A stretch of 64,000 nucleotides of DNA. Origin: Magnetococcales bacterium (GTDB lineage Bacteria; Pseudomonadota; Magnetococcia; Magnetococcales; DC0425bin3). Below are positions 13,481 to 63,607 of this stretch, piece after piece (the first letter of the stretch is position 1; the number at the start of each line of letters is the position of its first letter). The stretch is from contig JADGBZ010000001.1 in NCBI GenBank assembly GCA_015231175.1, forward strand, positions 18,407 through 82,406. Reading direction: 5' to 3'. The translations under genes and the position numbers were made by a program. The notes under the pieces were generated by a model. That model worked only from the letters and a program-made list of their open reading frames with translations. It did no database searches and was not told the origin of the DNA.

Positions 13481-13630
13481 CTGACTATGCCGCACTCTTT
13501 CAAGAAAAGCCCGGGTATAAAAGCCTTTGTCAGGGCTTCGCCCCGAACCCCACCAGGACGCTGTCCTGGACCTGCCAGGGAGCCAGCCCCCTGGACTCCG
13601 ATTCATGCCATCAAATCAGCACGGTTGAGC
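13481..13630 (+). mobile_element. MITE family A, copy 1 (degenerate ends)
   Basis: The core AAAGCCTTTGTCAGGGCTTCGCCCCGAACCCCACCAGGAC...GTCCTGGACCTGCCAGGGAGCCAGCCCCCTGGAC is nearly identical to the other copies. The ends are eroded, so boundaries are approximate. Confidence 0.75.
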
Positions 13631-13638
13631 CACTAGGG

Positions 13639-14883
13639 GTGGGCGGACTCTTGCGTGGGTCAGATCGAAATCTCCCCCCGGGATGGTGGATCGGCAAGTG
13701 GCTGGTGTTTCTGGGTGCAAGCCTGGTGGTGTTTTGTTATGGCTTGCACTTCGACACTTTTGTCATCCTGCTTGGGCTCCTTTGGCTGCTGTTTCGTTTG
13801 GCCAGTCCCGCCAACGCGATCACCTTTTCTGTCGTACTGGCCTTGATGACCTTATGCCTGTGGGGCGGCATCGAGCTGCTTGGTTTGAACAAACCTTTTT
13901 ACCGCTTGCATGAAAAGCTGGCCTATTTTGACAGGGAGATGGGCTTTTCGACCTATCAAAAAAATGTTTCCGCCAGCATGGAGATGCCCTTTGGCGATCT
14001 GCGTGCCATGTCATCGCACATGCCGCCTCTGGAGGCTCCACGGACCATCTCCTGCCAGACCGACAGCCTGGGATTTCGCAATACCCAGGATTATCATGGC
14101 CAACCCTTCCTTGTGGTGGGGGATTCGTTTGTGGTGGGTGTCGGCAATACGCAAAGTCAGACGCTCGACCGTCAATTGGCGGATCGTTATGGCATGCAAG
14201 CCTATAATCTCGGCCACCCCGGTGATGCATCCGATTATTTGCAGCGGATACAATATTTCCGTGCCCACTTCAGCGAGCGGCCCAAATTTTTGGTTTTTCT
14301 TTTTGAGGGGAACGATTTTCCCGCAAAGGATCGTCCCATCGCTCCACAAAGCTGGTTGCGCACCCTCAAGGAGAACTACGCCCTGTTGTCCAAAAACAGA
14401 TTTTCCAATTTCATCACGATGAAGCGCAACCAGATCAAGGTTCGCCGCAAGAACCAGGATCCTGGTCAGGATCCGGCAGGGTCGTTCATGGTTGGTGACC
14501 GGGAGATGGCCTATTACAAGCTCTATCGGGAAAACACCGAACGCACCCATTATGTGTTCCCCCCCGGTTATGTCGCCGATTTGCGCCTGCTCCTGCAACT
14601 GAGTCACAAGGTTTTTTTTATTCCCACCAAATACCGGGTGTATGGACCGGAGAGCACCCTTCCACCCCAGGCCTATTGGGAGCGACTCAACCAGGTTTGC
14701 CAGGAGGCAGGGACTCCCTGCATCAACCTCACCGCGCCAATGCAGATCCAGGCCCGCCACCATCTGGAACAAGGCCAGACGCTTTGGTGGCGTGATGACA
14801 CACACTGGAATCCACTGGGGATTGCGGTGGCGGCGGAGGTGGTGTGGCAAACTGCTGGCCGGTCCATCCACAAAACACCTTGA
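13639..14883 (+). CDS. Membrane-anchored SGNH/GDSL-type hydrolase or O-acetyltransferase (AlgX/AlgJ-like)
   Basis: Three N-terminal hydrophobic helices, an SGNH block I (VVGDSFVVG), and a C-terminal WWRDDTHWNPLG (the D-x-x-H catalytic pair, as in AlgJ/AlgX-type acetyltransferases). GTG start directly abuts MITE copy 1. Confidence 0.65.
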   Translation: MGGLLRGSDRNLPPGWWIGKWLVFLGASLVVFCYGLHFDTFVILLGLLWLLFRLASPANAITFSVVLALMTLCLWGGIELLGLNKPFYRLHEKLAYFDREMGFSTYQKNVSASMEMPFGDLRAMSSHMPPLEAPRTISCQTDSLGFRNTQDYHGQPFLVVGDSFVVGVGNTQSQTLDRQLADRYGMQAYNLGHPGDASDYLQRIQYFRAHFSERPKFLVFLFEGNDFPAKDRPIAPQSWLRTLKENYALLSKNRFSNFITMKRNQIKVRRKNQDPGQDPAGSFMVGDREMAYYKLYRENTERTHYVFPPGYVADLRLLLQLSHKVFFIPTKYRVYGPESTLPPQAYWERLNQVCQEAGTPCINLTAPMQIQARHHLEQGQTLWWRDDTHWNPLGIAVAAEVVWQTAGRSIHKTP

Positions 14884-14885
14884 AA

Positions 14886-14971
14886 GGACAATCTGTCCCA
14901 ATTGGGATACAAATCTGTCCCATTATGGACAAAATGTCCTGCGTCCGACGGCATACGGGACAAAATCGCCC
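14886..14971. repeat. Array of four short imperfect palindromes (GGACA-N3-TGTCC type)
   Basis: GGACAATCTGTCCC (14886-14899), GGGATACAAATCTGTCCC (14904-14921), GGACAAAATGTCC (14927-14939) and GGGACAAAATCGCCC (14957-14971), in the gap between two convergent genes. Confidence 0.6.
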
Positions 14972-15049
14972 GTGGTTTGACGGTTTTTCGTCAATATCCC
15001 AGCGCCCAAACGTATATTTAAAAAAATAACAATGTGAAAGCAACAGGTT

Positions 15050-15337
15050 TCAATCCTGCCGCAAGGAGACCGATACGTCGGTACGCCTGCGTTCCGGAGC
15101 ATTTTCACGCTCCTCCAGGAGGGCGACCAGCTTGTGGATAAACTCGGTTGACACACAATGATCCACCCAGGATTGCAAGGCAGCCACTGCAGTTATCGAT
15201 GGAATTTCAGGAATTTCCCGAAACTGATCCAGCACCCAGTTCTCGGCATGCAGGCGAAAAGTTTCGATCAGGTCACGAACCAAGCCATACAGGGCAGGGA
15301 AATTTTCATCCGTAACCGTGACGCTTTGTCGTTTCAT
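15050..15337 (-). CDS. Hypothetical 95-aa protein
   Basis: ORF only. No motif recognised, weak RBS. The composition looks protein-like (acidic, helical). Confidence 0.4.
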   Translation of the reverse strand: MKRQSVTVTDENFPALYGLVRDLIETFRLHAENWVLDQFREIPEIPSITAVAALQSWVDHCVSTEFIHKLVALLEERENAPERRRTDVSVSLRQD

Positions 15338-15593
15338 GGCAAAAAGTCCTAGAAATTGTTTTTAAAAACATTAGCTTACGTCATTAGCACCACATCCGGG
15401 CACCCGGTACGCCAACACCCGGCACGACCAAACCTCAAGTATGGCCTGTTGTTTGCATGATATATTCCTAAATATAATTTCCGAGCCGTCTGCTACCCCA
15501 GTTTTTCAGGAATCAAGGAGGCAGACAGCGAAGGCCCTTCGTTGCAAACCGTAGCGGTTGATCGTCAACCGGACTCTTGACAGGAGCGAGACC

Positions 15594-15737
15594 ATGAGCA
15601 CACTGAGCAATGACAAACCGAGCATCGTCGAACGTGTTGTGGAGAACGTTGGACTGATTACCATCATGGGGTTGGTCTTCGCGGCTGCACCGCTTCTGGC
15701 AGCGTGGTCCGTCAAAGGGCTGATTCAGATCTTTTAA
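15594..15737 (+). CDS. Possible 47-aa single-pass membrane peptide
   Basis: My translation: MSTLSNDKPSIVERVVENVGLITIMGLVFAAAPLLAAWSVKGLIQIF. Preceded by CAGGAGCGAGACC-ATG (AGGAG 8 nt upstream). Below the track cutoff. It competes with antisense ORF 15506..15715, which looks non-coding. Confidence 0.3.
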   Translation: MSTLSNDKPSIVERVVENVGLITIMGLVFAAAPLLAAWSVKGLIQIF

Positions 15738-15981
15738 GCCGGTTCCGCGTTTCGGGCGCACCCGGACTCCATGCCCGGCGGGATCCCGGTAATGGGCGCA
15801 CACCCGCCACCTTCCGATCGTGGATCCCCCCGTGGAGTTCGTGCGTTGCCAATCGTCGGGCTTGGCCGCAGGGAGAGGAAGGGCCAGCCCCCCTGGCTGT
15901 CCCTGTCTCCTGCGTCATTCCCAAGCTTGGCCACCAGCTGTGGCCTTCGATCCTGTCAGGGTGCGGTCCGTCGCCTGCTTA

Positions 15982-16995
15982 TCAGTAACAGGTTCCGCCC
16001 GCCTCCTGAAGGAGCATTTCCACTTCGTCGTGGTGCTTTTCCAGAGCCATCAAACGGGCGGTGACGCCTTTGTTGTCCCGCTCGTTCACGCGTATCCCTT
16101 TGCCCAGAAGATATTTCACAATCTCCGCATGGCCGTTTGCCGAGGCGAACATCAGCGCGTTAAGGCCATCCTCGTTCTTCACATGAATATCGGAACCAAA
16201 TTCCACCAACATTTTAACGATCTCGGTATGGCCCTTGTCCGCCGCAATGAGGAGGGCCGTGCAGCCGCACTGGTGATTCCGCTCGGCGCTGGCCTTTTTC
16301 TCGATCAACATGCGGGCGGCCTGAACGTCGCCATACTGGGCAGCCAACATGAGGGGCGTACTCCCCTCCTTGTCCTGGGCATTGATGTCGGCCCCGGCCT
16401 TGATCAGGGCCGGCAACAGGTGCGCGTTGCCATACTGGATGGCCAGATGCAAGGCTGTACGCTTTTTCTGGTTGACAGCCTTGACGTCAGCGCCCTTGGC
16501 GAGCAGCATTTCCAGAATTTTTTGCCGTGTTGCCTGCTCGGCAGGCTCCTTCAACCGCACGGCGACCAATTTCAGGAGCGGCGTCCAGGATCCTTTGGTT
16601 TGAAAGTTGACATCCCCCCCATGCTGGATCAAGGCTTCGACCAACTCTGGATGCAGCCACTCCGCAGCCAAAAACAGGGCCGTGCATCCAGCTCTCTGGT
16701 GGGGGGCGTTCACCTCGGCGCCCTTGCTTAAAAGGAGTTTGACGACCTCGGCGCTCCCCTCCTGCGAGGCCAGCATGAGCAGAGACATACCGACCTGATT
16801 GTACTGATTAGGGTTGGCTCCCCGATTCAGGGCGTCCCGGACAGCGACCCAGTTCCCTTTGTTCGCATCATCCCAAATTCCGGCTTCTGGAGCTGCGGCT
16901 CCCTGGTGTGCCCCTCCCTGGGCCAAGGCCACCGAGTTAATCCCTATGCCACCGGCCAACAGCAGCATACAAAGCACGGCTGCGATCTTGTTCAT
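15982..16995 (-). CDS. Secreted ankyrin-repeat protein (about 8 ANK repeats)
   Basis: Start trimmed to MNKIAAVLCMLLLAGGIGINSVALAQG (Sec-type signal peptide). The ATG overlaps the upstream gene's TGA (ATGA). Repeats of type G-TALH/LM-AA--GH-E-VK-LL--GAD-N recur throughout. Confidence 0.85.
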   Translation of the reverse strand: MNKIAAVLCMLLLAGGIGINSVALAQGGAHQGAAAPEAGIWDDANKGNWVAVRDALNRGANPNQYNQVGMSLLMLASQEGSAEVVKLLLSKGAEVNAPHQRAGCTALFLAAEWLHPELVEALIQHGGDVNFQTKGSWTPLLKLVAVRLKEPAEQATRQKILEMLLAKGADVKAVNQKKRTALHLAIQYGNAHLLPALIKAGADINAQDKEGSTPLMLAAQYGDVQAARMLIEKKASAERNHQCGCTALLIAADKGHTEIVKMLVEFGSDIHVKNEDGLNALMFASANGHAEIVKYLLGKGIRVNERDNKGVTARLMALEKHHDEVEMLLQEAGGTCY

Positions 16996-17573
16996 GATAG
17001 ACCACCCTCGGTTCGTGACCCCTTTGTCAGGCGAAAACTGCCAAAAATCTCCCGACGTGTCAAATCCTGCTGCCATCGACAGGTCATGGAGCGTTCCCTG
17101 CGAACATTCTCGCGGAACTGGACAACATCCGTCCAGGCAGAAAATACCTGATCGGCAGTTTGGTACCGGGACAAACCGACCACCAGGGGCTGGAGGTAAA
17201 AAGAGCCAAGCTGGGGGTCATACTGGACATGGGCATCCTGATCCTGTCCCAGCATGGTCAGGCTGACCCTGGGCCCCAACGTCGGCAGAGAGACCTGTTC
17301 CCAGGCCTGCGCGACCGTATCATGCGGCGGTTTCCCGGGAACCAGAACCCGGCAAAGCATCCAGGGGGTAAGCTGTAGAAAGACACTCCACCCCTCCACA
17401 TGGCGGCATGCCCTGACTTCATGGCCCAAAAGAGGATTGATCACCTCCATTTCCAGACCAGGCACACTCTGCTCCGCACCCAAGCGGCGGGTGGCAGCCG
17501 CGAAGAGTTCCTGAAACGCCTGCAAAAAAAACACCCATTCCGGGTCACAAGGGCTTGGCTGGGTGTCGTGCAT
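16992..17573 (-). CDS. HybE-family ([NiFe]-hydrogenase-type Tat proofreading) chaperone-like protein
   Basis: Trimmed from track ORF 16992..18044 to MHDTQPSPCDPEWVFFLQAF... The segment EGWSVFLQLTPWMLCRVLVPG resembles the HybE signature (E. coli HybE: EGQWTGCVITPWMLSAVIFPG). The first 157 aa of the track ORF are a Pro/Arg/Trp-rich shadow overlapping the TorD-like frame. Confidence 0.55.
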   Translation of the reverse strand: MHDTQPSPCDPEWVFFLQAFQELFAAATRRLGAEQSVPGLEMEVINPLLGHEVRACRHVEGWSVFLQLTPWMLCRVLVPGKPPHDTVAQAWEQVSLPTLGPRVSLTMLGQDQDAHVQYDPQLGSFYLQPLVVGLSRYQTADQVFSAWTDVVQFRENVRRERSMTCRWQQDLTRREIFGSFRLTKGSRTEGGLS

Positions 17574-18090
17574 GATCGCCTCCAAACAGATCCAAAAGCC
17601 GCGACCCAAGAAAGCCGTAGAGCGCCAAACCAGCCGACTCCTTGAGCCTGGTCGCAAACCTCGGCACCCAGATGGCCAAGTGTTCCTCCCACAACTCCCA
17701 CCGCAAGTCGGCCTGGGCCACGCGCTGCGCCGCAAGGTGGGCGGCCAGATCCAGCATGGAGCCCAGAAAATCCGGAGAGATATCCGGGTCCGCTGCAACA
17801 CCCGCACGCTGGTAGAGTCCGGCGATGGCCTGCACACAATCCCCCCCCAGAACGCCATGCCGCCAGAAGCTCTCAAAGGGGGGACAAGGTGTCGTGGGAA
17901 AGCCGTTGACAAAGAGCCGGGTATGTTCAGCCTGCCACGACTCCAGGGAAATTCCCCGGAGTTCGGGACAGACCGCCTGCAACCCGGGAAGCTCAATGGC
18001 CATCTCCTCGACGGCGGCCAGGGATCCTGGCTCGGGCTGCCCAAGCAGCCCGGCCAGCAGGGTCAACTCATGTTCCAAGGTGATGGTCAT
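17545..18090 (-). CDS. TorD/DmsD-family redox-enzyme maturation chaperone
   Basis: ESWQAEHTRLFVNG (the E-x-x-RLF family signature) and ...PDFLGSMLDLAAHL (the DH-type helix). The start at ATG 18090 is chosen to avoid overlapping the NrfD gene. An alternative start lies at 18123. Confidence 0.7.
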   Translation of the reverse strand: MTITLEHELTLLAGLLGQPEPGSLAAVEEMAIELPGLQAVCPELRGISLESWQAEHTRLFVNGFPTTPCPPFESFWRHGVLGGDCVQAIAGLYQRAGVAADPDISPDFLGSMLDLAAHLAAQRVAQADLRWELWEEHLAIWVPRFATRLKESAGLALYGFLGSRLLDLFGGDHARHPAKPL

Positions 18091-18100
18091 GAGATCATGG

Positions 18101-19057
18101 TTACCACGGATAGGCGTAAACACCAGCCGACATGAAATAGTGCCGCAGGAGATACCCTCCAGTGAGCACCAAAACCGATGCCGTCACGATGGGAACCTTG
18201 CCGGACCAGGAACCGAAAACGCATTTCAGCTCCATGGCCAGGGGGATCATCAACCCACACACGACGAAGCCCATCACCCAACCCGAATCGTTCCACAACA
18301 GCTCAGCCGACCGGTAGCCAGCCTCCGATCCAGAGAGCGTATAGTTGAAGAAAGAGTAGATGACAACCAACTCCGCCGTGATCAACCCGATATCCACCCG
18401 TTCATAGAGTGCCCGGATGGTGTGATCCACCCGGTGGTAGATAAACATGTACATGACGATGAGAAGCCAGGCCATGGAGGTGGAAAAGGCAGAAACCGTG
18501 AAGAGAATGGGCACGCCCGGGTTGTGCCACAGGGCCACCGCCGGGAAACTCTGCAAGAGCAACCCGGTATAGACAGCAGTCCCCAGGCCGGTCACGACGG
18601 CAATCCATCCCAGAACAGTCTGGTATTTTTGCGCGGTCACCGCCACATCGCGGGTGATTTTCATCCGCAGAAAATCACCCATGACAGGCCAGCCCAGGAG
18701 GCGCTTTTTTTCCACCATGAAAGGCAGGGCAAACAGGACAGCCGCGATCTGGAGCCAGAGGATGAACTGCGAACCCCAGGCGATCCAGGAATCGGGTTTA
18801 TGAAAGATGCCCCATGGGGTCAGGATGTACACCGCCGCCCATTTGTGCAACAGGTGGAGGAAGAGCATGCCGGACCCCAGAGTCAACATGGCCGTGCCGG
18901 AGAGAGCCCCCCACATCACCAACTCTTTCTCCTCCCGCAGATACATGTGGGTAAGAAAGCTGACCACGATCACAGCGGCTCCCATGCCGCCAAGAAAGAG
19001 ATACAACGCAAACCACCACGTCCACAAATTCTGAGTGCTGTAGGTCATGATTTCCAT
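18101..19057 (-). CDS. NrfD/PsrC-family integral membrane quinol-interacting subunit
   Basis: 318 aa with about 8 TM helices. N-terminus WTWWFALYLFLGGMGAAV is typical of the NrfD/PsrC family. Positioned after the Mo and FeS subunits. Confidence 0.85.
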   Translation of the reverse strand: MEIMTYSTQNLWTWWFALYLFLGGMGAAVIVVSFLTHMYLREEKELVMWGALSGTAMLTLGSGMLFLHLLHKWAAVYILTPWGIFHKPDSWIAWGSQFILWLQIAAVLFALPFMVEKKRLLGWPVMGDFLRMKITRDVAVTAQKYQTVLGWIAVVTGLGTAVYTGLLLQSFPAVALWHNPGVPILFTVSAFSTSMAWLLIVMYMFIYHRVDHTIRALYERVDIGLITAELVVIYSFFNYTLSGSEAGYRSAELLWNDSGWVMGFVVCGLMIPLAMELKCVFGSWSGKVPIVTASVLVLTGGYLLRHYFMSAGVYAYPW

Positions 19058-19066
19058 GCGGATCTC

Positions 19067-19666: not shown

Positions 19667-19680
19667 GATGCCACTCCTTT

Positions 19681-26991: not shown

Positions 26992-27033
26992 GCAACGATT
27001 CAACACCCTTTCGAGAAAAGCTTTGGCATGTGC
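26992..27033 (+). repeat. Solo left-end fragment of MITE family A
   Basis: GCAACGATTCAACACCCTTTCGAGAAAAGCTTTGGCATG resembles the left ~40 nt of full copies (GCAACCATTCAGCACCCTTTCAAGAAAAGC...). It lies 23 nt upstream of the ispH start. Confidence 0.55.
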
Positions 27034-29403: not shown

Positions 29404-30210
29404 CGAAGAACGTGCACGGGCCAGATTGGAGCGTGAGATCCAGGAGTCCCAACGTCTCTCCCAGGAAGCCCGGCGTCTCTCCCAGGAGGCGGAGGCCCGC
29501 CTGGAGCGTGATCTCCAAGATACCTGGCGAATCCTGCGCGAGAACAGTGCCGAAACGGACCGAAGATTTCAGGAAACCGATAGAAAATTCGTAACTATTC
29601 ATCACCCGCCAACGAATCGGGGTCCAGGGGGCTGGCTCCCTGGCAGGTCCAGGACGGAGTCCTGGTGGGGTTCGGGGCGAAGCCCTGACAAAGGCTTTCA
29701 TGTCCAGGCTGTTTTTGAAAGGGTACTGAATAGTTACGAAAATTCCAGGAAACCAATCTGAAAATCAAAGAAGTTTCCACACAGATCGGCAGGTTGGGTG
29801 GTCGCTGGGGGGAGTTTGTCGAGAGTTTGGTTGCCCCTGCCTGCGAGACCCTGTTTGCGGAACGGGGCATTCCCATCCACAAGGTCAGCCCCCGGATCAA
29901 GGCCCGACTCCCCCCCAACAGGCAAATGGAAATTGATCTCCTGGTGGTGAATACCGACACGGTGGCCGTGGTGGAAGTCAAAAGCAAACTGTCGGTGGAG
30001 GATGTACGGGAACACCTCTCCCGCCTGGCCGAATTCAAGGAATTTTTCCCTGAATACCCCGAGCGACGTGTGCTGGGGGCGGTCGCCGGAACCGTCATCG
30101 AAGAGAATATATGCCGGTATGCCATAAGCGCCGGTCTGTTCGTTATCGTCCACGCCGGTGACACGGTACGTCTGGCCAACGATACAGCGTTTGTGCCCCG
30201 GGTTTGGTGA
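29372..30210 (+). pseudogene. Coiled-coil + PD-(D/E)xK-like protein gene split by a MITE (paralog of 52213..53094)
   Basis: The track shows two pieces (29312..29761 and 29794..30210). Piece 1 ends ...ETDRKF, then reads into the MITE. Piece 2 (GGRWGEFVESLVAPACETLFAERGIPIH...) closely resembles the C-terminal half of the 293-aa paralog. Removing 29591-29745 rejoins ...TDRKF|QETNLKIKEVSTQIGRLGGRWGEF in frame, paralleling ...RKFQETDRQFKETDQKIKEVSTLVGRLGGRWGEF in the paralog. Confidence 0.85.
29591..29737 (-). mobile_element. MITE family A, copy 2 (147 bp, intact)
   Basis: Perfect 11-bp TIR GTAACTATTCA...TGAATAGTTAC. The 8-bp direct repeat GAAAATTC occurs on both sides (29583-29590 and 29738-29745). 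Confidence 0.92.
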
Positions 30211-30336: not shown

Positions 30337-30423
30337 GCCCAGATGGCGGAATTGGTAGACGCGCTAGATTCAGGGTCTAGTGATCGCAAGGTCGTGGAAG
30401 TTCGAGTCTTCTTCTGGGCACCA
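30337..30423 (+). tRNA. tRNA-Leu (anticodon CAG)
   Basis: GCCCAGATGGCGGAATTGGTAGACGCGCTAGATTCAGGGTCTAGTGATCGCAAGGTCGTGGAAGTTCGAGTCTTCTTCTGGGCACCA. 7-bp acceptor stem, anticodon arm CTAGA-TTCAGGG-TCTAG, long variable arm, GTTCGAGTC T-loop, encoded CCA. Confidence 0.93.
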
Positions 30424-40271: not shown

Positions 40272-40403
40272 CTTAACCTCCCTCGATCATGACAACTCTG
40301 CACCCCTCCAGAAACGGCCCGGCACGAAGGGTTCGTCTGGATTTCACCCCAAACCCGACCGGGATTCACTCCAGGATCCGTTCGGTCGCCTGTCTTCTGG
40401 TTC

Positions 40404-40560
40404 GCAACCATTCAGCACCCTTTCAAGAAAAGCTGGAAAAGCTGAGACATGAAAGCCTTTATCAGGGCTTCGCCTCGAACCCCCACCAGAACTCTGTCCT
40501 GGACCTGCCAGGAAGCCGACTCCCTGGACTCCAACTCGTTGCCGGGTGGCGAACAGCCAC
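40404..40560 (+). mobile_element. MITE family A, copy 3
   Basis: GCAACCATTCAGCACCCTTTCAAGAAAAGC...ATGAAAGCCTTTATCAGGGCTTCGCC...CTGCCAGGAAGCCGACTCCCTGGAC...GGGTGGCGAACAGCCAC. It sits in the only long intergenic gap of the 41711->34013 operon. No clear TSD. Confidence 0.8.
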
Positions 40561-40607
40561 ACATGGCCAAGCTCAGCATGACCACCCTCGATCCGTCTCG
40601 TGAAGGA

Positions 40608-41889: not shown

Positions 41890-43588
41890 GTAGTCGTTCA
41901 GAGACCCCTGGACCTGAAAGCCCAATGATGATTTGATGGGGGCGATGTCGCAACAGATTGCAAGGTTCACTCCATGAAGCTTACTGACCACGATTTGCTC
42001 CAGTTTGATGAGAGATATCTGGCTTCCCTTGAGCCGGGTTCTCTGTTGGCAGTGAGCAAAAAGCTTTTGTCCGATCTCAAGGAATCTCGTGAGCGTTTAA
42101 ACCAGACGCCCGACAACAGTTCCCGCCCCCCCAGTAGCCGTTCCCCTTACCTTGGGATTCCAGAGGAAGGGGGGGTAGACTCTTCGAATGAGCATAACGA
42201 AGATGTCACGAACTCTTCGGTTGAGAAGGGAAAATCGGAAAAAGAAGACGACGATCACAGAGATGGTAATGGTTCTGGTGGTTCCGACAGCACAGGGAAA
42301 TCACGCTTTAAAAAGCAGAAGCGCAAAGCGGGAAAACAGGTCGGCGCTCCTGGCTATGGACGGCAGCAGAAGATTCCGGCTCAGCGGGAGGAGATTCATA
42401 AAGCGGACAAGTGCGTAGCCTGTGACGCCGTCATTCCTCTGGATATTCCATTTGCGGCCCAGATCGGGTTTTTTGTTTTGGAGTTGATCAGTGGAACTTT
42501 GGAGCATCCTGGTTTGAGACTGGAATGCACCAAGCACCTTTTTGGTGATTCCATTTGTGGATGTGGACATGTCACCCGTACTGGTCCTGGAATTGGGGAG
42601 CGACACGTAGTGGAGGGTCGAAAAGATGCCACCTGTCTGAGTGAATGGCGACTGATTGGCCCCATGCTGGCGGCATTCATCGTGGCCCTTAACCTGCGCA
42701 TGAGACTGTCGCGGCCCCGGATCCGGGAATTTTTGATGGATTGGTTCAGCCTGGAACTGAGCGCCGGGACCATCGACAAGTGTATCCGCAAAGCCGGTTT
42801 GGCGGTGAATCCGATTTATCAAGATGAACTGATTGACGAGGCTCGCCAATCTGGCTTGATCAACGTGGACGAGACCCCATGGAAGGAAAAGGGGGTTGCC
42901 CGATGGTTGTGGGTATTCGTGACAGCCAACACGGTCTTGTTTTTTGTGGGTCGTCGCACCCAGCAGGTTGTCTTGGACATTCTGACCGAGGCCTATGCGG
43001 GCTGGCTGATGAGTGACGGACTCATGAACTATCGGATCTTTTCGAGACGGCTCCGCTGCTTGGCCCACTTGATCCGAAAGGCGCGAGGGTTGGCTGAGAG
43101 TCTTGATGCAGAGACCAAGCTGTTCGGCGACAGGACATTGGAAGTCCTGGAGTTCGTCGTTGGTCAAGTCCGAGACGGACCTGATCGGACCATCTTTCAG
43201 CCGATACTGTCAGATTTCAAATGGCTCTGCGAATGGCATAGGGCGGAAACGCCAGAGGGAAAGCTGCGCAGCCTTGCCGTTGAGTTTCTCAACGACTGGG
43301 ATGTGATTTGGATGACTCTGGAACATCCAGATTTGCCGTTGACCAACAACGAGGCGGAACGCGCCCTGCGCCACTGGGTCATTGCCCGCTTGATCAGCCA
43401 TGGGACTCGCACTGCTGAAGGGAGTCGGGTCTTTACCGTATTGGCCAGTGTGATCGAAACCTGCCGGAGGCGGAAAGTATCTCCTTGGACCTATCTGGCG
43501 ACGGTTATTGCAGAACGTAAAAAGGGCAACCCCTCACCAGCTTTGCCCGTTCCGATGGTGGTTTAAGGTGGGGTCTCTGAACGGTTAC
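41890..43588 (+). mobile_element. IS66-family insertion sequence, single-ORF type (1699 bp)
   Basis: IRs GTAGTCGTTCAGAGACCCC / GGGGTCTCTGAACGGTTAC (17/19). The 8-bp flanks GTAGATTC and GTAGACTC match 7/8. Confidence 0.88.
41974..43566 (+). CDS. IS66-family DDE transposase
   Basis: 530 aa: LNQTPDNSSRPPSS, CVACDAV / CGCGH zinc-finger-like pairs, NVDETPW, LMSDGLMNY, CLAHLIRKA, LTNNEAERALRHWV. Confidence 0.9.
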   Translation: MKLTDHDLLQFDERYLASLEPGSLLAVSKKLLSDLKESRERLNQTPDNSSRPPSSRSPYLGIPEEGGVDSSNEHNEDVTNSSVEKGKSEKEDDDHRDGNGSGGSDSTGKSRFKKQKRKAGKQVGAPGYGRQQKIPAQREEIHKADKCVACDAVIPLDIPFAAQIGFFVLELISGTLEHPGLRLECTKHLFGDSICGCGHVTRTGPGIGERHVVEGRKDATCLSEWRLIGPMLAAFIVALNLRMRLSRPRIREFLMDWFSLELSAGTIDKCIRKAGLAVNPIYQDELIDEARQSGLINVDETPWKEKGVARWLWVFVTANTVLFFVGRRTQQVVLDILTEAYAGWLMSDGLMNYRIFSRRLRCLAHLIRKARGLAESLDAETKLFGDRTLEVLEFVVGQVRDGPDRTIFQPILSDFKWLCEWHRAETPEGKLRSLAVEFLNDWDVIWMTLEHPDLPLTNNEAERALRHWVIARLISHGTRTAEGSRVFTVLASVIETCRRRKVSPWTYLATVIAERKKGNPSPALPVPMVV

Positions 43589-45504: not shown

Positions 45505-45665
45505 GTAACCATTCGGCACCCTCTGCAAGAAAGGCTTGGATATGAAGGCCTCTGTCAGGGCTTCGTCCCGAACCCCACCAGGGCGTTGCCCTGGACCTGC
45601 CAGGGAGCCAGCCTCCTGGACCCCGATGCAAAAGGCGATCACGGCATCGGGTGTACCCATTGCCA
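45505..45665 (+). mobile_element. MITE family A, copy 4 (right end eroded, boundary uncertain)
   Basis: GTAACCATTCGGCACCCTCTGCAAGAAAGGCTTGGATATGAAGGCCTCTGTCAGGGCTTCGTCCCGAACCCCACCAGGGC...CTGCCAGGGAGCCAGCCTCCTGGACCCCGAT. Similarity decays after 45627. Confidence 0.7.
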
Positions 45666-45787: not shown

Positions 45788-46185
<398 letters not shown>

Positions 46186-46339
46186 CTCCCCTCATGGCAT
46201 GGAAAGTTTGAGCAGTTGCCGATTGCCCTGAAATCGTTGCGGAAGAGGTTGAAAATTTGGGGCGGTTCAATATACCCTTTCGCTTTTATCTTCTGATCGG
46301 GTTGGGTGCGGAGCCATGGCAAGGGAGTAGAGCAAGGAG

Positions 46340-48331: not shown

Positions 48332-48480
48332 GTAACTGTTCAACACCCTCTCAAAGAAAGCCTTGACATGAAAACTTTTGTCATAGCTTCACCCCGAACC
48401 CCACCAGGACACCGTCTTAGGCCCTGCCAGGGAGCCAGCCACCTGGACCCCAATGCGTTACCAGGCGCCGAACAGTCGGC
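48332..48480 (+). mobile_element. MITE family A, copy 5
   Basis: GTAACTGTTCAACACCCTCTCAAAGAAAGCCTTGACATGAAAACTTTTGTCATAGCTTCACCCCGAACCCCACCAGGAC...CTGCCAGGGAGCCAGCCACCTGGACCCC...GCCGAACAGTCGGC. It abuts the stop codon of the convergent AMMECR1 gene. Confidence 0.8.
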
Positions 48481-49068
48481 TCACTCCTTGAACTTTTCAG
48501 CCATATAGACAAAAATTTCCGGATGTTGTTGACAGCAGTTCCCCGGCAGGCCAGCCTTTTGGCAGAGGTGGCGCAGGAATTGTTCCGGATCGGGAAGTTG
48601 CTCCCACACCTGAGGCAGGAAAGTGGCGCGGCGTCCTTGCAGGGATAGGGTCACGCCGTGAATGCCGGGTTGCAGCCGGACCATCAGATCGGCAACATCC
48701 CGATAGGGAAATGGCTGGGGTGGAGTCAGAAGAGAGACTTCGATGCGTATCTCCGGGAGAACCTCGACCTTCAGAGGTGGAAAACGGGGATCCCGGGTGG
48801 CTGAAGCCACGGCATTCTCCAGCAGATCGTTCACCAGTGGGCGGTGCGCCTCCAGAGAACCGATACACCCCTGGAGTTGGCCCGCACGGGTCAGGGTGAT
48901 GAAGCAAGCGCCGGGCTGTTGCAATTCGGGTTGCGCCGCGACAACGGCTGCCGGCATCAATCCCGGTTTCCCGGCCAAAACCTGCTGCAAATGGGTCCGC
49001 ACCAACGTTGTCAAAGATTGGCCTTGCATGGGTTCCACTCCCTGATTTTTGGATTGCATCCTGCCCAA
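48481..49068 (-). CDS. AMMECR1-domain protein
   Basis: ACFITLTRAGQLQGCIGSLEAHRPLVNDLLENAVASATRDPRFPPL, the AMMECR1 core signature. Several in-frame starts are possible. Confidence 0.85.
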   Translation of the reverse strand: MGRMQSKNQGVEPMQGQSLTTLVRTHLQQVLAGKPGLMPAAVVAAQPELQQPGACFITLTRAGQLQGCIGSLEAHRPLVNDLLENAVASATRDPRFPPLKVEVLPEIRIEVSLLTPPQPFPYRDVADLMVRLQPGIHGVTLSLQGRRATFLPQVWEQLPDPEQFLRHLCQKAGLPGNCCQQHPEIFVYMAEKFKE

Positions 49069-49170: not shown

Positions 49171-49318
49171 GTATTTGTTCAGCACCCGACAACGCATTGG
49201 AGTCCAGGGGGCTGGCTCCCTGGCAGGGCCTTGGACGGTGTCCTGGCAGGGTTCGGGGCGAAGCCCTGACAAAGTCTTTCATATCCAGGCTTTTCTTGAA
49301 GGGGTGGTGAATAGTGAT
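49171..49318 (-). mobile_element. MITE family A, copy 6
   Basis: GTATTTGTTCAGCACCCGACAACGCATTGGAGTCCAGGGGGCTGGCTCCCTGGCAGG...GGGTTCGGGGCGAAGCCCTGACAAAGTCTTTCATATCCAGGCTTTTCTTGAAGGGGTGGTGAATAGTGAT. Its right end overlaps the annotated start of the SBP gene. Confidence 0.8.
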
Positions 49319-53101: not shown

Positions 53102-53135
53102 ACAACGATTCAGCACCCTCGCACGAAAGATCAGG
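53102..53135 (+). repeat. Solo left-end fragment of MITE family A
   Basis: ACAACGATTCAGCACCCTCGCACGAAAGATCAGG compared with the consensus GTAACCATTCAGCACCCTTTCAAGAAAAGCCTGG. No similarity beyond this. It is followed by a hairpin, GATCAGGCAGCC-TTCG-GCTGATC. Confidence 0.5.
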
Positions 53136-53932: not shown

Positions 53933-53948
53933 GGCTTTCTCTCCTCCG

Positions 53949-58440: not shown

Positions 58441-58715
58441 GGATCATCCTGGCGCCAGACCCGCCATTGGTCAGAGCGTGGGGGTTCCATGCCCAACTCT
58501 TTGCGCGCCCGCCGCTCTATGGTGTTCAAGCCGGTCCGATACACCCATTCTACCTGCAGAGCCTGTTCCTCATCCAGGAGTTGCAGCCTCTCCTTTTGGG
58601 CGGCTTCCAGGGCGCGATGGGCCGTCAACATCCAGCTGCGCGAAGCGACGGTGGCCGCCGCAGTGACCACGAGCAGAGCGATCAGAACCAAGGATAGCAA
58701 CCAATAGGGTCTCAT
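58437..58715 (-). CDS. ftsL: Cell division protein FtsL
   Basis: 92 aa, a single TM helix (WLLSLVLIALLVVTAAA) followed by a coiled coil. Positioned between rsmH and ftsI with 4-nt overlaps on both sides. Confidence 0.85.
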   Translation of the reverse strand: MRPYWLLSLVLIALLVVTAAATVASRSWMLTAHRALEAAQKERLQLLDEEQALQVEWVYRTGLNTIERRARKELGMEPPRSDQWRVWRQDDP

Positions 58716-59779
58716 GGAGTGTCCATCCTTTCCGGCAAACGCTCCGCCACACGCACCCGGGCGCTTCGGGCGCGAGGATTTTTTTGTATCTCACTGGGGG
58801 AGGGCGTCCAGGGTTTGCGGGTGATCAGACGCAAAACCGGCGATGGGGCGGCTGAAAGGAGAGGGGGCGGCAACCTGGGATGACCGACCAAATCCGGTCG
58901 GGCGCCCTGACGAAAAGTCTCTTTGACCAAACGATCTTCCAGGGAGTGAAAACTGATGACCACGATGCGCCCGCCTGGTTTGAGGCAGGATATGCCCGCA
59001 GCCAAACCAGACTGGAGTTCCGTCAATTCGTCGTTGACCGCAATACGCAAGGCTTGAAAGGTCCGTGTTGCAGGATGAATCCCTCCGCGTTTATAGGGGA
59101 GAGCCCGTTCCAGGAGTTTCGCTAACTGGCGCGTGGTGGTCAATGGCGCTTGAAGGCGCGCTTGTACAATGACGCGGGCAACCCGACGGGCGTACCGCTC
59201 ATCACCGTGATGAAAGATCAGGTCGGCCAACGCCTGTTGTCCCAGGCGGTTGACCAGATCGGCTGCGGAAGGACCGCTTGCCGGATCCATGCGCATGTCC
59301 AAAGGGCCATCCGCCTGGAAGGAAAACCCCCGGTTGGGAACATCCAATTGGTGCGAAGAGACCCCCAGATCGAAAATGATTCCATCCACCAACCCCATGC
59401 CAAGACGTTGCAGATGTTCCGTCAATTGGCCAAACCTGCCATGCAGCAAGGTCAGGCGTCCCTGCCAGGCTTGCACGGCCAAGGCGCCATGGGCCACCGC
59501 TTCGGGATCCCGGTCCATGGCGATGACGCGACCGTCCGGCGCCATGGCCTCCAGCAAACGAGCACTATGCCCCCCCCCGCCGAAGGTGGCATCGACCAAA
59601 ATCTGCCCGCTCATCGGCGCCAGGGCGGCAAGCACCTCCTCGGCCATGACCGGGGTGTGATAACACCCGGAGGCCGGATCCAGAGTCAGCCCAGGGCACA
59701 AGACAGAAGAGTTGTCGGGGGCATGTAGAATGTCGGTTCTTTCCTGCAATGGTTTTCTCTCCACATTATTCAGGTGCAA
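58712..59779 (-). CDS. rsmH: 16S rRNA (cytosine1402-N4)-methyltransferase RsmH/MraW
   Basis: HTPVMAEEVL, VDATFGGGGHS, GIIFDLGVSSHQLD, and SFHSLEDR motifs. The true start may lie downstream of 59779. Confidence 0.9.
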   Translation of the reverse strand: MHLNNVERKPLQERTDILHAPDNSSVLCPGLTLDPASGCYHTPVMAEEVLAALAPMSGQILVDATFGGGGHSARLLEAMAPDGRVIAMDRDPEAVAHGALAVQAWQGRLTLLHGRFGQLTEHLQRLGMGLVDGIIFDLGVSSHQLDVPNRGFSFQADGPLDMRMDPASGPSAADLVNRLGQQALADLIFHHGDERYARRVARVIVQARLQAPLTTTRQLAKLLERALPYKRGGIHPATRTFQALRIAVNDELTELQSGLAAGISCLKPGGRIVVISFHSLEDRLVKETFRQGARPDLVGHPRLPPPLLSAAPSPVLRLITRKPWTPSPSEIQKNPRARSARVRVAERLPERMDTP

Positions 59780-59945
59780 ACACGCGCACCTTTTGCACGT
59801 CCTATGTTACCCATACCTGTCATCTTGAATAACGAATATTATTATTGCAAAATAATTCATATCGACACAATGCAAATCATTTCAATTAAACACCTGTCAT
59901 TGTTATTTGCCGTGCCGCACCCATACTTGTCGAATCTCTCTGGAG

Positions 59946-59970
59946 GTAATCGTTCAGAGACCCCCGGACT
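59946..59970 (+). repeat. Orphan IS66-type terminal repeat (25 nt)
   Basis: GTAATCGTTCAGAGACCCCCGGACT versus the left end of the IS at 41890, GTAGTCGTTCAGAGACCCCTGGACC (22/25). It is directly followed by the short MITE. Confidence 0.7.
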
Positions 59971-60054
59971 GTAACCGTTCAGCGCCCCTTCCAGAAAAAT
60001 CTGGACATGAAAGCCTTTGTCAGGGCTTTTCTGGAAGGGGCGCTGAACGGTTAC
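59971..60054. mobile_element. MITE family A, short 84-bp derivative with perfect 28-bp TIRs
   Basis: GTAACCGTTCAGCGCCCCTTCCAGAAAA - ATCTGGACATGAAAGCCTTTGTCAGGGC - TTTTCTGGAAGGGGCGCTGAACGGTTAC. Confidence 0.85.
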
Positions 60055-60069
60055 AAAACGAGGATGAAA

Positions 60070-63000
60070 TCACCTGGAATCCGGGAGCAAAAAGTGGAGA
60101 TCCGGATCCCTGAAAATCCGGCACGCATGGTCAGGATCCAGGGGTCTGTGGATATAAAACCCCTGCAACTCATCGCAACCGGCGCGTGAGAGTATATTGA
60201 ACTGCTCCAGATTTTCAACCCCTTCCGCGACAATCTGGAGCCCATGGTTGCGGCCCAGGGCGATGATGGCCGCAACGATGCCCTCGCTCTTGCTGCTGAG
60301 ATGGATATCCTGGACGAACGAGCGGTCGATCTTCAATGTCTGAATCGGCAACCGGTGCAGACGACTCAGGGAGGAGAAGCCGGTGCCAAAATCATCCAGG
60401 GCCACGGTGATGCCCAGGGATTGAAACGCTCCCAGCAGTTCAACGGCCTGGTGGGAACTCTGCATCACCACGCTTTCAGTGATTTCAAACTCCAACATGT
60501 GGGGAGGAATGCCCGACGCATCCAAGGCGGCATGCATCATTTTGGGGAAATTCGGATCCAACAACTGGCGGGGCGAGAGGTTGATGGCCATGGTAAACCC
60601 TTGCATGCCCGCATCCAGCCAGGCGCGAGCCTGATGGCAGGCCGTCTGGATGATCCACTCCCCCAGCGGCAGAATCAGGCCCGACTCCTCGGCCAGAGGA
60701 ATGAACTCCATGGGAGAGACGGTCACGTTGCCATCCAGATGCATGCGCACCAGGGCTTCGAATCCGGTAAATCTGTGCGCTTGTGGATTCCATTTGGGCT
60801 GATAACAAAGAGTGAACTCCCCTTTGTGAATGGCTCGCCGCAACTGTTCGATTTTGTGCAGGCGCGCCTCCATTTCCAGGCGCGTCCCCGACTCATAGAA
60901 CTCCCAATGGCCATATCCCAACTCTCTGGCCTTTCTTAAAGCAGTCACGGCGTTTTTGATCAGCAGGTCGGGTTTTTCGCCATCCTGCGGAAAGATGGCC
61001 ACGCCCATGTTGACCCGGACCGTCGACTCCTTCCCGAAAATCAAAAAGGGTTGATTCAGGGATTCCCGGAGGCGCTCCACCATCAAGGCCACCTGGTCAT
61101 TATTGGTCAATCCATTGAATATAAAAGCAAATTCGCGATCGCTCCAGCGCGCCAGGGTATCAACCTTGCGTTTGATCTGCCGCAACCGCCGGGCCATCTT
61201 TCCCAGAAGCCGCTCTTCGGAGTCCATTGCCAGGTTGTCAAAACTGGTCATGGCCCCATCTTCTGGAGCCAGCAGAACCATGGCGATGATCTCCTGCGTG
61301 CCACGGACCTGCCGCATGGCCTGTTTCAGACGATCCTTGAGAAGACGCCGATTGGGCAGACCGGTTAAATGATCCTTGAAGTGGCACTCCCTGAGTTTTT
61401 GCATCAGCTGATCTTTTTCCACTTCCACTCCCGCAGTCTCCATCTCCTCTGGCGCCACCTCCACAGGTTGACTGGTGACGGGTTTGACCAGGGAAACGGG
61501 CTGCCGTCGATTGACGAACAAGGAGTTGCCGGGAATTTTTTTGGCCTGTTTTTTGGCCTCCGCCGCAAAACGGGAAATTTCCATGAAGCTGGCGATGCGA
61601 CCCGGTTCGACGACAACCACACCCAGGGAGAGGGATGTCAGGGGATGAAACACCCGTTTGCCTTGGCGATCCTCCGATTCATAACCAGAATTTTTTACAT
61701 GTTCCAGGTCGAAGAAGGCGACCACGACCTTGGCAAACTCCGCCAGTATTCGTTGGCAACGCGCCTCCCAGTCCGTACTGCGAAAGAGGATGATGAAATC
61801 ATCGCCGCCGATATGCCCCAGAAAGTCCAGATCATGCTCTACGCAGTCGGAAAGAACCGATGCCGTGGCCTGAATGATGCTGTCTCCTTTTTTAAACCCG
61901 TAGACATCGTTGTAGGGTTTGAAATGATCCAGATCACAATAACAGGCGATGAATGGGATTTGACCTTCGATCCACAGGTTGGCGGTGTCGTTGATGGGAA
62001 CATTGCCCGGCAGCAGGGTCAGCGGATTGGCATGCCGCGCCCCCTGGATCTGCATCTCGGTCAACACCCGCAACAACTCATGGACCGTTCCAACACCCAC
62101 ATAGTTGTCCTGGTCGTAGACGATATAGCCACTGGCCAAAGCGCGATGGGTGTCGTTCAACATTTTTTTGCTGAGCTCCTGGATGGAGATATCCACCCCC
62201 ACCACATGGGGCTCCTTTTCCATCAGGAGAGAACAGGGTTTGCGCCCGAATAAATCATGGTGAAAGGGGCGGGCCAGGCGCTCCATGAAGGCATGCCGGT
62301 TCAACAAACCCACCACCTCGCCATTTTGCATGACCGGCAGCAGATCCAGATGGGGATAATCCTGGAAAAGACCCAACACGTCGATGTTATGGGTCTCCGG
62401 GGAAACGACCGGAGCCGACCTGACCAGATCCTTGTTGCCGATGGTGTCGCGCTGCGTCACGGAACGATCCTGGAAGCCTGACTCCCCCAGGAGCAGGTCT
62501 TTGACCCCCACAGGGACCAGGGCCAGAGGATCGGGGCGTGGCCGGCCAAGCAAAAAACCCATGCCGTGCGTCACACCCAGACTTTTCGCCACACGCAACT
62601 CCTCACGGGTTTCGATACCCTGGGCGATAAGCCGCGCACCAGCTTGTTGCGCCAGAGTTCCCAACGCTGCCAGATGCCGCTGTTTGACCAGGTCGATATC
62701 AATGTTCTGGATGAAATAACGATCCACAGTGATATTCTGGATCTGTTGTTCCAAGAGTTGCTCCGGGACCATCCCCGTCACATCCAGATGATGCACGGCC
62801 ACCGGAAAACGCTTTTGAATCACCTCCTGATCCGCTTCTTGTGCAACCTGCATGATCAAAGGCACGGGAATATCCAGGAGATGATCCAAAAATGGACTCA
62901 GGTCGACACGAGGTGATTCGCTGGCGGCCTTGCCGAGGGCCAGTTTCAAAAACAACCAACCTGTCAGATGAATGGCATGAAACCGCTGCAACAGAATGAC

Positions 63001-63300
63001 CCGGCTGATGTGATCCAAAATTTCCACCATGCCACAGCGTTCCGCCACCTGAAACAGTTTGTCCGGTGCGTGCAGCCTGCTGTGGGATGGTCCCCGGATG
63101 CGGCCCTGAAAACCGAATATGCGGCCATCACAGAAATCCACCACCGGCTGATAGATGGGCGTCAAATGCTGTTGATGCACAATATTGAGCAGCTCCTTTT
63201 TCTGCTCGATGGGCAGATCCACGTCATGGGGCAAGGCCTCTTCCAGGGTCTTCTGGAAAATGTTTTTCAGTTTGTCGGATGGTGTGACATATGTCTCCAT
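60070..63300 (-). CDS. Five-domain c-di-GMP protein: degenerate EAL - CBS pair - GGDEF(GGDDF) - degenerate GGDEF - canonical EAL
   Basis: 1076 aa. The N-terminal EAL-like domain lacks the EAL triad (YQPVVDF..GRIFGFQGRIRG...IAQGIETREE...GFLLGRP). This is followed by a CBS-like pair, DLDHFKPYNDVYGFKKGD...HIGGDDFIILF, LTGLPNRRLL...RWSDREFAFIF, and finally YQPKWN...FEALVRMH...EFEITES...DDFGTGFSSLSRL...KIDRSFV...AEGVEN. Confidence 0.88.
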   Translation of the reverse strand: METYVTPSDKLKNIFQKTLEEALPHDVDLPIEQKKELLNIVHQQHLTPIYQPVVDFCDGRIFGFQGRIRGPSHSRLHAPDKLFQVAERCGMVEILDHISRVILLQRFHAIHLTGWLFLKLALGKAASESPRVDLSPFLDHLLDIPVPLIMQVAQEADQEVIQKRFPVAVHHLDVTGMVPEQLLEQQIQNITVDRYFIQNIDIDLVKQRHLAALGTLAQQAGARLIAQGIETREELRVAKSLGVTHGMGFLLGRPRPDPLALVPVGVKDLLLGESGFQDRSVTQRDTIGNKDLVRSAPVVSPETHNIDVLGLFQDYPHLDLLPVMQNGEVVGLLNRHAFMERLARPFHHDLFGRKPCSLLMEKEPHVVGVDISIQELSKKMLNDTHRALASGYIVYDQDNYVGVGTVHELLRVLTEMQIQGARHANPLTLLPGNVPINDTANLWIEGQIPFIACYCDLDHFKPYNDVYGFKKGDSIIQATASVLSDCVEHDLDFLGHIGGDDFIILFRSTDWEARCQRILAEFAKVVVAFFDLEHVKNSGYESEDRQGKRVFHPLTSLSLGVVVVEPGRIASFMEISRFAAEAKKQAKKIPGNSLFVNRRQPVSLVKPVTSQPVEVAPEEMETAGVEVEKDQLMQKLRECHFKDHLTGLPNRRLLKDRLKQAMRQVRGTQEIIAMVLLAPEDGAMTSFDNLAMDSEERLLGKMARRLRQIKRKVDTLARWSDREFAFIFNGLTNNDQVALMVERLRESLNQPFLIFGKESTVRVNMGVAIFPQDGEKPDLLIKNAVTALRKARELGYGHWEFYESGTRLEMEARLHKIEQLRRAIHKGEFTLCYQPKWNPQAHRFTGFEALVRMHLDGNVTVSPMEFIPLAEESGLILPLGEWIIQTACHQARAWLDAGMQGFTMAINLSPRQLLDPNFPKMMHAALDASGIPPHMLEFEITESVVMQSSHQAVELLGAFQSLGITVALDDFGTGFSSLSRLHRLPIQTLKIDRSFVQDIHLSSKSEGIVAAIIALGRNHGLQIVAEGVENLEQFNILSRAGCDELQGFYIHRPLDPDHACRIFRDPDLHFLLPDSR

Positions 63301-63459
63301 ATGCTTCTCCTCCTGCGGACCTGTTTGACAACATAAATTTGCAAAGAACCGATTTTATATTATTATTATAATCATTTACAGAAACAGCGACCCTCTGCCC
63401 CCCGCCAAGCCCCTCCGGCTAGAAATCAACGCCCTGGATCAGGCCACCATTCCAAAAAG

Positions 63460-63607
63460 GTGACTCTTCACCACCATTGCAAAAAAAGCGTGGACATGAA
63501 GACCTTTGTCGGGGCTTCGCCCCGAACCCCACCAGGACTCTGTCCAAGACCCTGCCAGGGAGCCACCCCCCGAGACCTCAACTCGTGGTCGGGTGGTGAA
63601 CAGTTAC
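63460..63607 (+). mobile_element. MITE family A, copy 8 (148 bp)
   Basis: GTGACTCTTCACCACC...GGACATGAAGACCTTTGTCGGGGCTTCGCCCCGAACCCCACCAGGAC...GGGTGGTGAACAGTTAC. The flanks CCAAAAAG (63452-63459) and CCGAAAAG (63608-63615) form a 7/8 8-bp TSD. Confidence 0.85.

Follow-up and report, generated by a model that had tools for sequence, protein, structure and literature searches.

The 64,000-nucleotide stretch of Magnetococcales bacterium DNA analyzed here (GenBank assembly GCA_015231175.1, contig JADGBZ010000001.1, positions 18,407 to 82,406; hereafter the window) carries a dense family of ~147-bp repeats, very likely a family of MITEs (miniature inverted-repeat transposable elements) of IS66-family type, specifically of the ISBst12 type with a single open reading frame (ORF). 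The window holds eight full or near-full ~147-bp copies, an 84-bp palindromic variant, and two left-end fragments, in addition to a solo insertion sequence (IS) end and an intact IS66-family IS, 1699 bp long with a single ORF (ISBst12 type). The assignment follows from repeats that are short, non-coding, bounded by 17-bp terminal inverted repeats (TIRs), intergenic, and present in many copies, with 8-bp target-site duplications (TSDs) at four of nine. A preliminary description of the window had proposed such a family, and the size, TIRs, intergenic placement, copy number, and 8-bp TSDs are all in agreement with it. The copies, fragments, and resident IS are the following (window coordinates):

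13481-13630, + strand: MITE copy c1, core near consensus (2/75 mismatches), flanked by an aceE-like E1 gene (stop codon at 13444) and a GDSL-lipase-like ORF
26992-27030, + strand: solo left-end fragment, consensus positions 1-39, profile E=4e-4
29591-29737, - strand: MITE copy c2, 147 bp, TIRs GTAACTATTCAGTACCC / GTAACTATTCATCACCC, the best preserved copy, between a MazG-like gene and a tRNA
40289-40585, + strand: composite of c9 and c3, the outer divergent c9 being 40289-40403 plus 40561-40585 with c3 nested within
40404-40560, + strand: MITE copy c3, nested in c9, 157 bp including an internal insertion of 9-10 nt
41890-43588, + strand: autonomous IS, 1699 bp, single ORF at 41974-43566 (530 aa)
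45505-45627, + strand: MITE copy c4, reaching only to consensus position 122, right TIR missing, with a 587-aa ORF on one side and the RNase P RNA gene on the other
48332-48479, + strand: MITE copy c5, between the convergent speA and AMMECR1 genes, no TSD
49171-49318, - strand: MITE copy c6, between the divergently oriented AMMECR1 and SBP_bac_5 genes, no TSD
53102-53128, + strand: weak solo left-end fragment, TIR 14/17 followed by ~10 nt, between a 293-aa ORF and purC
59946-59970, + strand: solo IS-type left end GTAATCGTTCAGAGACCCCCGGACT, 25 nt, 18/19 to the IS TIR, directly adjoining c8
59971-60054, no strand assigned: 84-bp variant c8, perfect 28-bp TIR, no TSD (0/8)
63460-63607, + strand: MITE copy c7, TIR 16/22, upstream of a GGDEF/EAL gene

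The seven ~150-bp loci reported in the preliminary description are real. A BLASTN search of the window with copy 1 matched all seven (E 1e-23 to 1e-43), an nhmmer profile built from the aligned copies returned them at E 1e-38 to 1e-47 per copy, and a 35-nt core pattern gave five matches in the window against zero expected. The 84-bp element at 59971-60054 was borne out as well, with its perfect 28-bp palindromic TIR, and the left-end fragment at 26992-27030 is solid, with 31/37 identity to consensus positions 3-39. The second reported fragment, at 53102-~53128, is weak and non-significant by nhmmer alone, and the end of c4, formerly placed at ~45665, is actually at 45627. The original tally also overlooked the solo IS end at 59946-59970 and c9 at 40289-40585. 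The profile search placed a degenerate copy at 40290-40400 adjoining c3 (E=1.6e-6), and in silico removal of c3 leaves a 140-bp c9 unit with 63% identity to the consensus.

When the copies are aligned with generous flanks the similarity starts and stops sharply, giving a consensus unit of 147 bp from GTAACTATTCAGCACCC to GGGTGCCGAACAGTTAC. The consensus TIR is 17 bp, GTAACT(A/G)TTC(A/G)GCACCC, with left and right ends matching at 15/17. With ≤3 mismatches allowed, the terminus motif occurs 15 times in the 64 kb (~0.05 expected), each time at a MITE or IS end. Unit sizes range from 84 to 157 bp, and none of the ORFs overlapping copies has a Pfam match. The TIRs match at 16/22 in c2 and c7 and 22/22 in c8, and are degraded in c1, c4, and c5; c1 retains a left TIR at 12/17, with its right end replaced or decayed (5/17). 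Core identity between copies spans 74-97%, with a young group (c1, c2, and L006a, one of two copies on a contig from a second Magnetococcales assembly described below) that is 92-97% alike and old copies at 74-88%. The G+C content of the window is 50-60% throughout.

The flanking duplications speak to insertion by transposition, and were scanned with ±2 nt of boundary slack against a null of 5000 random site pairs. Perfect 8/8 repeats flank c2 (GAAAATTC, at 29583-29590 and 29738-29745; null p 0.001) and c9 (CCTCGATC, at 40281-40288 and 40586-40593; null p 0.001), and 7/8 repeats flank c7 (CCAAAAAG / CCGAAAAG; null p 0.011) and c4 (GCAAAAGC / GCAAAAGG; null p 0.011). The two TSDs quoted in the preliminary description, GAAAATTC (8/8) around 29591-29737 and CCAAAAAG/CCGAAAAG (7/8) around 63460-63607, were correct, and 8-bp TSDs are carried by four of the nine window copies, for which our binomial estimate from the TSD-scan null is p ~2e-6. 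The resident IS has flanks of the same kind (GTAGATTC / GTAGACTC, 7/8; null p 0.011), and it is supported that the TSD length in the MITEs is that made by the resident IS lineage.

The same flanks bear on whether the family might instead be a REP/REPIN-like (repetitive extragenic palindromic) or another palindromic repeat that does not transpose, dispersed by a REP-associated tyrosine transposase (RAYT; Y1) or by recombination, with a coincidental likeness to IS ends. REP/REPIN sequences are also abundant, intergenic, hairpin-forming short repeats, and the hairpin-rich, strictly intergenic nature of the element, the lack of a TSD in over half of the copies, and the Y1 transposase gene in the related genome of Magnetococcus marinus MC-1 would all be compatible with that origin. 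REPINs, however, have no TSDs and no IS-like TIRs and are Y1 transposase dependent, whereas the window family has 8-bp flanking repeats at 4/9 copies (null p≤0.011 each; jointly ~2e-6 by our binomial) and IS66-type tips, its terminal motif sitting exactly at the tips and matching the IS lineage. Further, the 147-bp unit with 17-bp TIRs is unlike a 20-40-bp REP, and tblastn with the MC-1 Y1 transposase found no Y1/RAYT homolog in the window. With TSDs present and no RAYT in the window, a REPIN/RAYT identity was rejected, and a non-transposing repeat of any such kind is considered very improbable.

As a MITE family, the copies record more than one wave of insertion, as indicated by c3 being nested in an older or divergent copy and by core identities of 74-97% that divide into young and older groups. 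The perfect TSD around so divergent a copy as c9 suggests that c9 is a separate subfamily and not the product of simple in-place decay. The c9 flanking repeat becomes 9 bp if read as CCCTCGATC. Though nested, c3 has no TSD of its own (3/8). It should be noted that c4 is without its last 25 nt, yet has its 7/8 flank repeat exactly at the truncation point (GCAAAAGG vs GCAAAAGC), as if the right end had been precisely removed up to the TSD. The solo IS end and c8 were also considered as a single 109-bp element, which was ruled out by the lack of a TSD around the pair (3/8).

The resident IS offers a reference for the ends and the transposase of this type of element. Its ORF (41974-43566) carries DDE_Tnp_IS66 (Pfam PF03050, 6.3e-30), and the ends and coordinates previously given for it (41890-43588) are correct, with GTAGTCGTTCAGAGACCCC on the left (tip GTAGTC) and GTAACCGTTCAGAGACCCC on the right (tip GTAACC). 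The ORF has 84 nt of the element ahead of it and 22 nt behind it. Space for tnpA or tnpB is lacking, which makes this a single-ORF, ISBst12-type element. The transposase appears intact, as it is full length relative to 2772 homologs and retains D299, D348, and E462, residues that are invariant across the clade over a 51-100% identity range. Members of the ISBst12 group are ~1.4-1.9 kb in size. The group is defined by its single ORF (PMC12898284) and, like the resident IS, has one DDE_Tnp_IS66 ORF, GTAA/GTAG-type tips, and 8-bp duplications, whereas the canonical IS66 has three ORFs (tnpA, tnpB, and tnpC) in 2.4-2.8 kb (PMC3281130), unlike the single-ORF, 1699-bp resident.

Related IS elements have highly consistent termini. 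The M. marinus MC-1 reference contains five identical copies of an IS that is 64% identical to the window transposase, with GTAACC at both tips, a perfect 19-bp TIR, GTAACCGTTCAGAGACCCC, that is identical to the right end of the window IS, and perfect 8-bp TSDs in 4/5 copies. The IS-type TIR is common to relatives at 71-72% transposase identity (L021 and L032) and is invariant in the clade across 64-100% transposase identity; the P0005 IS (69%) has the tip GTAGCC, and the first 12 nt are kept even at 51% (L031). The MITE-type TIR was not found on the IS of the relatives P0002, P0004, P0005, P0007, and P0032, all of which have the IS-type TIR, and the window did not yield a second IS66-family transposase. 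The MC-1 IS (L011-L015, CP000471.1) is 1969 bp long, with an extra 80-86-aa ORF upstream of the transposase that is lacking in both the 1699-bp window IS and the L021 IS. Among the MC-1 copies, L012 lacks a TSD and overlaps a Y1_Tnp (IS200/IS605-type) gene at its right end.

The link between the MITEs and the resident IS is real but partial. The preliminary description had proposed that they share termini, a similarity that was to withstand proper alignment, and this stands for two features. The first is a subterminal block, CCTGGAC(C/A)TGAAAGCC, in which IS left-end positions 18-33 match MITE positions 30-45 at 15/16, a score reached by 0/2000 shuffles (p<0.0005), and which is specific to the resident IS, the 71%-identical L021 relative matching at only 11/16. 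The second is the c8 TIR, which matches the IS TIR at 16/18 when anchored at the tip (0/2000 shuffles; p<0.0005). The variant c8 is built from the MITE left arm (53/58 to the consensus), to which an inverted copy of its own first 28 nt is joined. The proposal holds less well for the tip of the 147-bp consensus, which matches the resident IS at 10/12, and at 12/17 over the whole TIR; free local alignment of the consensus TIR to the IS is non-significant (p ~0.15), and anchoring tip-to-tip gives ~3.5e-5 by our simple binomial. At TIR positions 6-7, the CG of the IS is TG, CA, or TA in the MITEs, all transitions. The short repeats CGGAC and TGGAC bracket the first ~31 nt of c8, hinting at an origin of the MITE left arm from an IS end.

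This partial match leaves room for a partner other than the resident IS. The elements would be of the same kind, with transposase supplied by a different ISBst12-type IS elsewhere with the TIR GTAACT(A/G)TTCAGCACCC, and the resident IS a cousin of shared ancestry. That the TIR stays the same in five further IS lineages or copies (64-72% identity), and its first 12 nt even at 51%, implies that TIR positions are constrained, which lends weight to a MITE TIR that is only 12/17 to that of the resident IS. Against the invariant TIR of the IS clade, the five differences in the MITEs are meaningful and could affect transposase binding, and the mobilizing transposase may be that of another ISBst12-type IS. 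The experimentally active ISDge4 of the ISBst12 group, with the TIR GTAACTGCTCAGCA and an 8-bp direct repeat (DR; PMC12898284), matches the MITE tip variant GTAACTGTTCAGCA at 13/14, such that the MITE tip is as close to this distant TIR as to the resident IS. Set against such a partner are the 15/16 block, specific to the resident IS (11/16 in the L021 relative), the bridging of both TIR types by c8 (16/18), the position 6-7 transitions, which are compatible with decay from the IS sequence, and a window without a second IS66-family transposase. Overall, a sibling IS as the partner is a tentative possibility, one held with some doubt.

Under the MITE reading, a transposase that a full-length IS of the lineage provides in trans would bind and cut the two MITE ends, the unit would integrate at a staggered 8-bp target, tending to hold an A/T run, and repair would duplicate the target. 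Common ancestry with the resident 1699-bp IS would account for the same tip and the 16-nt subterminal block, with the 84-bp variant as an intermediate form. Amplification would then have occurred within one Magnetococcales lineage in more than one wave, leaving young copies, old copies, and one nested insertion, with copies surviving only between genes. The family, its ends, the length of its TSDs, the target bias, the relationship to the IS, and the restriction to one lineage are shown by the data; trans-mobilization, the identity of the transposase-supplying IS, and any present activity are what we infer. Recent or continuing mobility, as put forward in the preliminary description, is only a possibility. 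Most copies have damaged ends, and the window copies are probably for the most part immobile relics that have had one end lost or damaged, c2 being the only young-looking copy (perfect TSD and 97% core identity to another copy).

Several observations weigh against this reading. No TSD was found in the scan at c1, c3, c5, c6, and c8 (5/9 copies), and c8 has a perfect 28-bp TIR, as in a young element, yet no TSD. The A/T-run target bias, an A4/T4 run in 5/8 left flanks (CACTTTTC, GAATTTTC, GCAAAAGC, GAAAATGC, and CCAAAAAG) against a background of ~5% of 8-mers in the window or in local intergenic DNA (enrichment p ~1e-5), is a pattern that was spotted post hoc in the data. The MITE TIR differs from the resident IS TIR at 5/17 positions where the IS-clade TIR is otherwise invariant, and given these differences cross-mobilization of the MITE ends by the resident IS may be considered as a candidate only. 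No empty site or presence/absence polymorphism was found among the retrievable relatives, in which synteny is rearranged. Lastly, the termini are more damaged than the core (23% vs 8.4% mismatches; Fisher p=2e-9), the reverse of what an actively transposing population would display. This contrast is driven mostly by c1, c4, and L006b (the second copy on the related contig), each of which has lost its right end, and without them it is 15% vs 8.4% (p=0.02). Selection on the core, gene conversion favoring the center, or end damage associated with the transposase are possible explanations.

The first of these explanations would amount to domestication, with selection maintaining the hairpin-rich core (consensus ~46-120) as a structure in RNA or DNA, for example as a small RNA, an mRNA stabilizer or terminator, or a protein-binding site, and cores outlasting termini as a consequence. 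The consensus RNA fold is stable (-55.6 kcal/mol, z=-3.5), mismatches are fewer in the core than at the ends (8.4% vs 23%; p=2e-9), c1 has a near-perfect core between wrecked ends, paired changes occur in the central hairpin of c4 and L006b, and a core-like 46-nt motif without MITE ends is present in the metagenome-assembled genome (MAG) of L031. The fold energy, however, is as expected for TIRs plus three internal hairpins. The paired changes are confined to 3 cells of the central hairpin in c4 and L006b, and hairpin covariation across the nine copies was not above shuffled controls on 5/5 measures, by which selection on RNA structure was rejected. The end/core contrast reduces to mostly three right-end losses (15% vs 8.4% without them, p=0.02), and gene conversion among dispersed copies would also homogenize centers over edges.

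Searches for a functional identity were equally unfavorable to domestication. At the Rfam gathering score no match to the element was obtained, with only RNase P RNA and a tRNA found elsewhere in the window, and a permissive scan added one implausible sub-threshold match to a vertebrate long non-coding RNA; identity with an Rfam family was rejected. No terminator-like or promoter-like sites occur inside c3-c6, the four copies scanned, giving no support to a terminator or promoter role. Moreover, copies lie in both orientations relative to their neighbors and in convergent, divergent, and tandem spaces. The suggestion in the preliminary description that copies might supply terminators, promoters, or RNA structures thus finds no support from Rfam, covariation, or the c3-c6 site scan; we found no evidence of host use of the element, and domestication is regarded as quite unlikely. 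The broader proposition that this is the first characterized ISBst12-branch MITE family with an A/T-run target preference and a host-retained hairpin core, exapted in magnetotactic cocci as a module with a structural or regulatory role, is based on the retention of the core without the right end in c1, c4, and L006b, and is likewise unlikely, if marginally less so. In the L031 MAG (GCA_015229045.1, Magnetococcales), the 46-nt stretch GGGCTTCGCCCCTGGACCCCACCAGGGGGATAATCCCCCTGGACC at 5482-5530 resembles the MITE core, hairpins included, within an AT-rich intergenic region and with no MITE termini. This stretch could represent an older hairpin repeat that supplied the core through capture, or else a separate but related element.

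Every copy is intergenic. The placement between genes noted in the preliminary description was upheld, while the one genic copy it claimed was not found, in that ORFs overlapping copies lack Pfam support and the flanking genes have it. These flanking genes include those for the aceE-like E1, MazG-like, NTP-transferase, class II aldolase, AMMECR1, SBP_bac_5, and GGDEF/EAL proteins, as well as ispH, speA, purC, and rsmH. Copies occur in both orientations and in tandem, convergent, and divergent intergenic spaces. The 104-aa ORF at 40289-40603 is MITE sequence throughout and is spurious. Two codons said to adjoin copies had different outcomes. The right end of c5 does lie next to the AMMECR1 stop codon at 48481-48483, matching the codon reported at 48481. 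The GTG at 49314, by contrast, starts the longest ORF of the SBP_bac_5 gene from inside c6 and is probably not its real start, the MITE having apparently created a false N-terminal extension, because the N-terminus of the L016 ortholog aligns ~15 codons downstream (VSISNRILL...). The solid left-end fragment at 26992-27030 sits 26 nt 5' of the ispH/lytB start codon.

The family appears restricted to a narrow lineage. A 21-nt core pattern, run against a collection with a single genome for each GTDB species, returned 9 loci, of which only L006, from Magnetococcales WMHbin3, is real, the rest matching the 21-mer alone. L006 is a 4.3-kb contig with two copies (L006a and L006b). The IS transposase and the arginine decarboxylase of the window are each 100% identical to Magnetococcales MAG proteins present in two assemblies (MBF0175277/MBF0321433 and MBF0175279/MBF0321436). 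An HPPK encoded on L006 is 100% identical to MBF0178304, an accession ~3000 numbers after MBF0175277 of the window, and because of this identity and proximity WMHbin3 is most probably the same organism as the window MAG, with the L006 copies as two more paralogs. A two-block pattern searched against Joint Genome Institute (JGI) metagenome contigs gave a single chance match (L010) and no real copy. Neither copies nor the terminus motif were found in five ~22-kb speA loci, representing three distinct regions, of the closest retrievable relatives, which have 81-82% SpeA identity and rearranged synteny. The family is lineage-specific and dense, with ~11 copies in 68 kb; any figure of hundreds of copies per genome derived from this density would be a guess. 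The L006 contig begins within a MITE copy, with its positions 1-111 starting at consensus position 37. The repeat thus appears to break assemblies of this organism, which may be the reason that only two copies turned up in the genome collection.

The family fits the usual pattern of bacterial MITEs in both structure and inferred mechanism, and the resident IS, its autonomous relative, is likewise a typical IS66-family element of the ISBst12 type. Correia elements of Neisseria have promoters and RNase III sites among their functional effects, effects of a type not evident in the window family. Bacterial examples such as MITEPsy1/2 of Pseudomonas syringae and the IS982-related MITE of Cardinium (PMC3189936, PMC9769881) are similarly short and non-coding, with TIRs resembling a co-resident IS, TSDs of the parental length, dispersed intergenic positions, and internal structure, and differ in that the parent family here appears to be IS66/ISBst12. 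An 8-bp DR is also described for the Paracoccus IS66-family elements ISPpa5a and ISPpa7 (PMC3281130). Relative to the ISBst12 group, the MITEs are without a transposase, and the relation is limited to the ~17-nt tips and the 16-nt subterminal block. The searchable literature, ISfinder being outside the search, contained no IS66/ISBst12-derived MITE and no Magnetococcales MITE.

None of the findings alters the current view of how MITEs work, and the significance of the family is largely practical. For annotation, the element yields spurious ORFs (40289-40603) and false start codons (the GTG at 49314), and for assembly it breaks contigs in fragmentary data, as with L006 starting inside a copy. 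With a density of ~1 copy per 6 kb, the element may rank among the major repeats of this uncultured magnetotactic coccus. The intact, one-ended, nested, and palindromic forms together make up a natural set of substrates for ISBst12/IS66-family transposition, a process that is poorly understood, and an apparent A/T-run target preference can be added to them. Should copies prove polymorphic between populations, they could act as strain markers for Magnetococcales in metagenomes.

Several minor features of the window and its relatives accompany these results. A bacterial class A RNase P RNA gene lies at 45788-46187 (+ strand; 309.9 bits), with c4 ~160 nt upstream, and a tRNA gene at 30337-30420 (+ strand) has c2 ~600 nt upstream. 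The assembly GCA_015232755.1 carries two speA genes (L016 and L020) that are 82% and 81% identical to that of the window, lie on two contigs, and have different neighbors, and the L020 gene order equals that of L019 from another assembly, which suggests that this bin mixes two Magnetococcales genomes. Lastly, one borderline profile match was not counted as a copy:

10316-10416, - strand: possible ancient relic, profile E=0.02

This sequence is intergenic, upstream of the aceE-like gene, and its left end GATCATGGCA resembles the c9 left end GATCATGACA, making it a possible ancient relic of the c9 subfamily.

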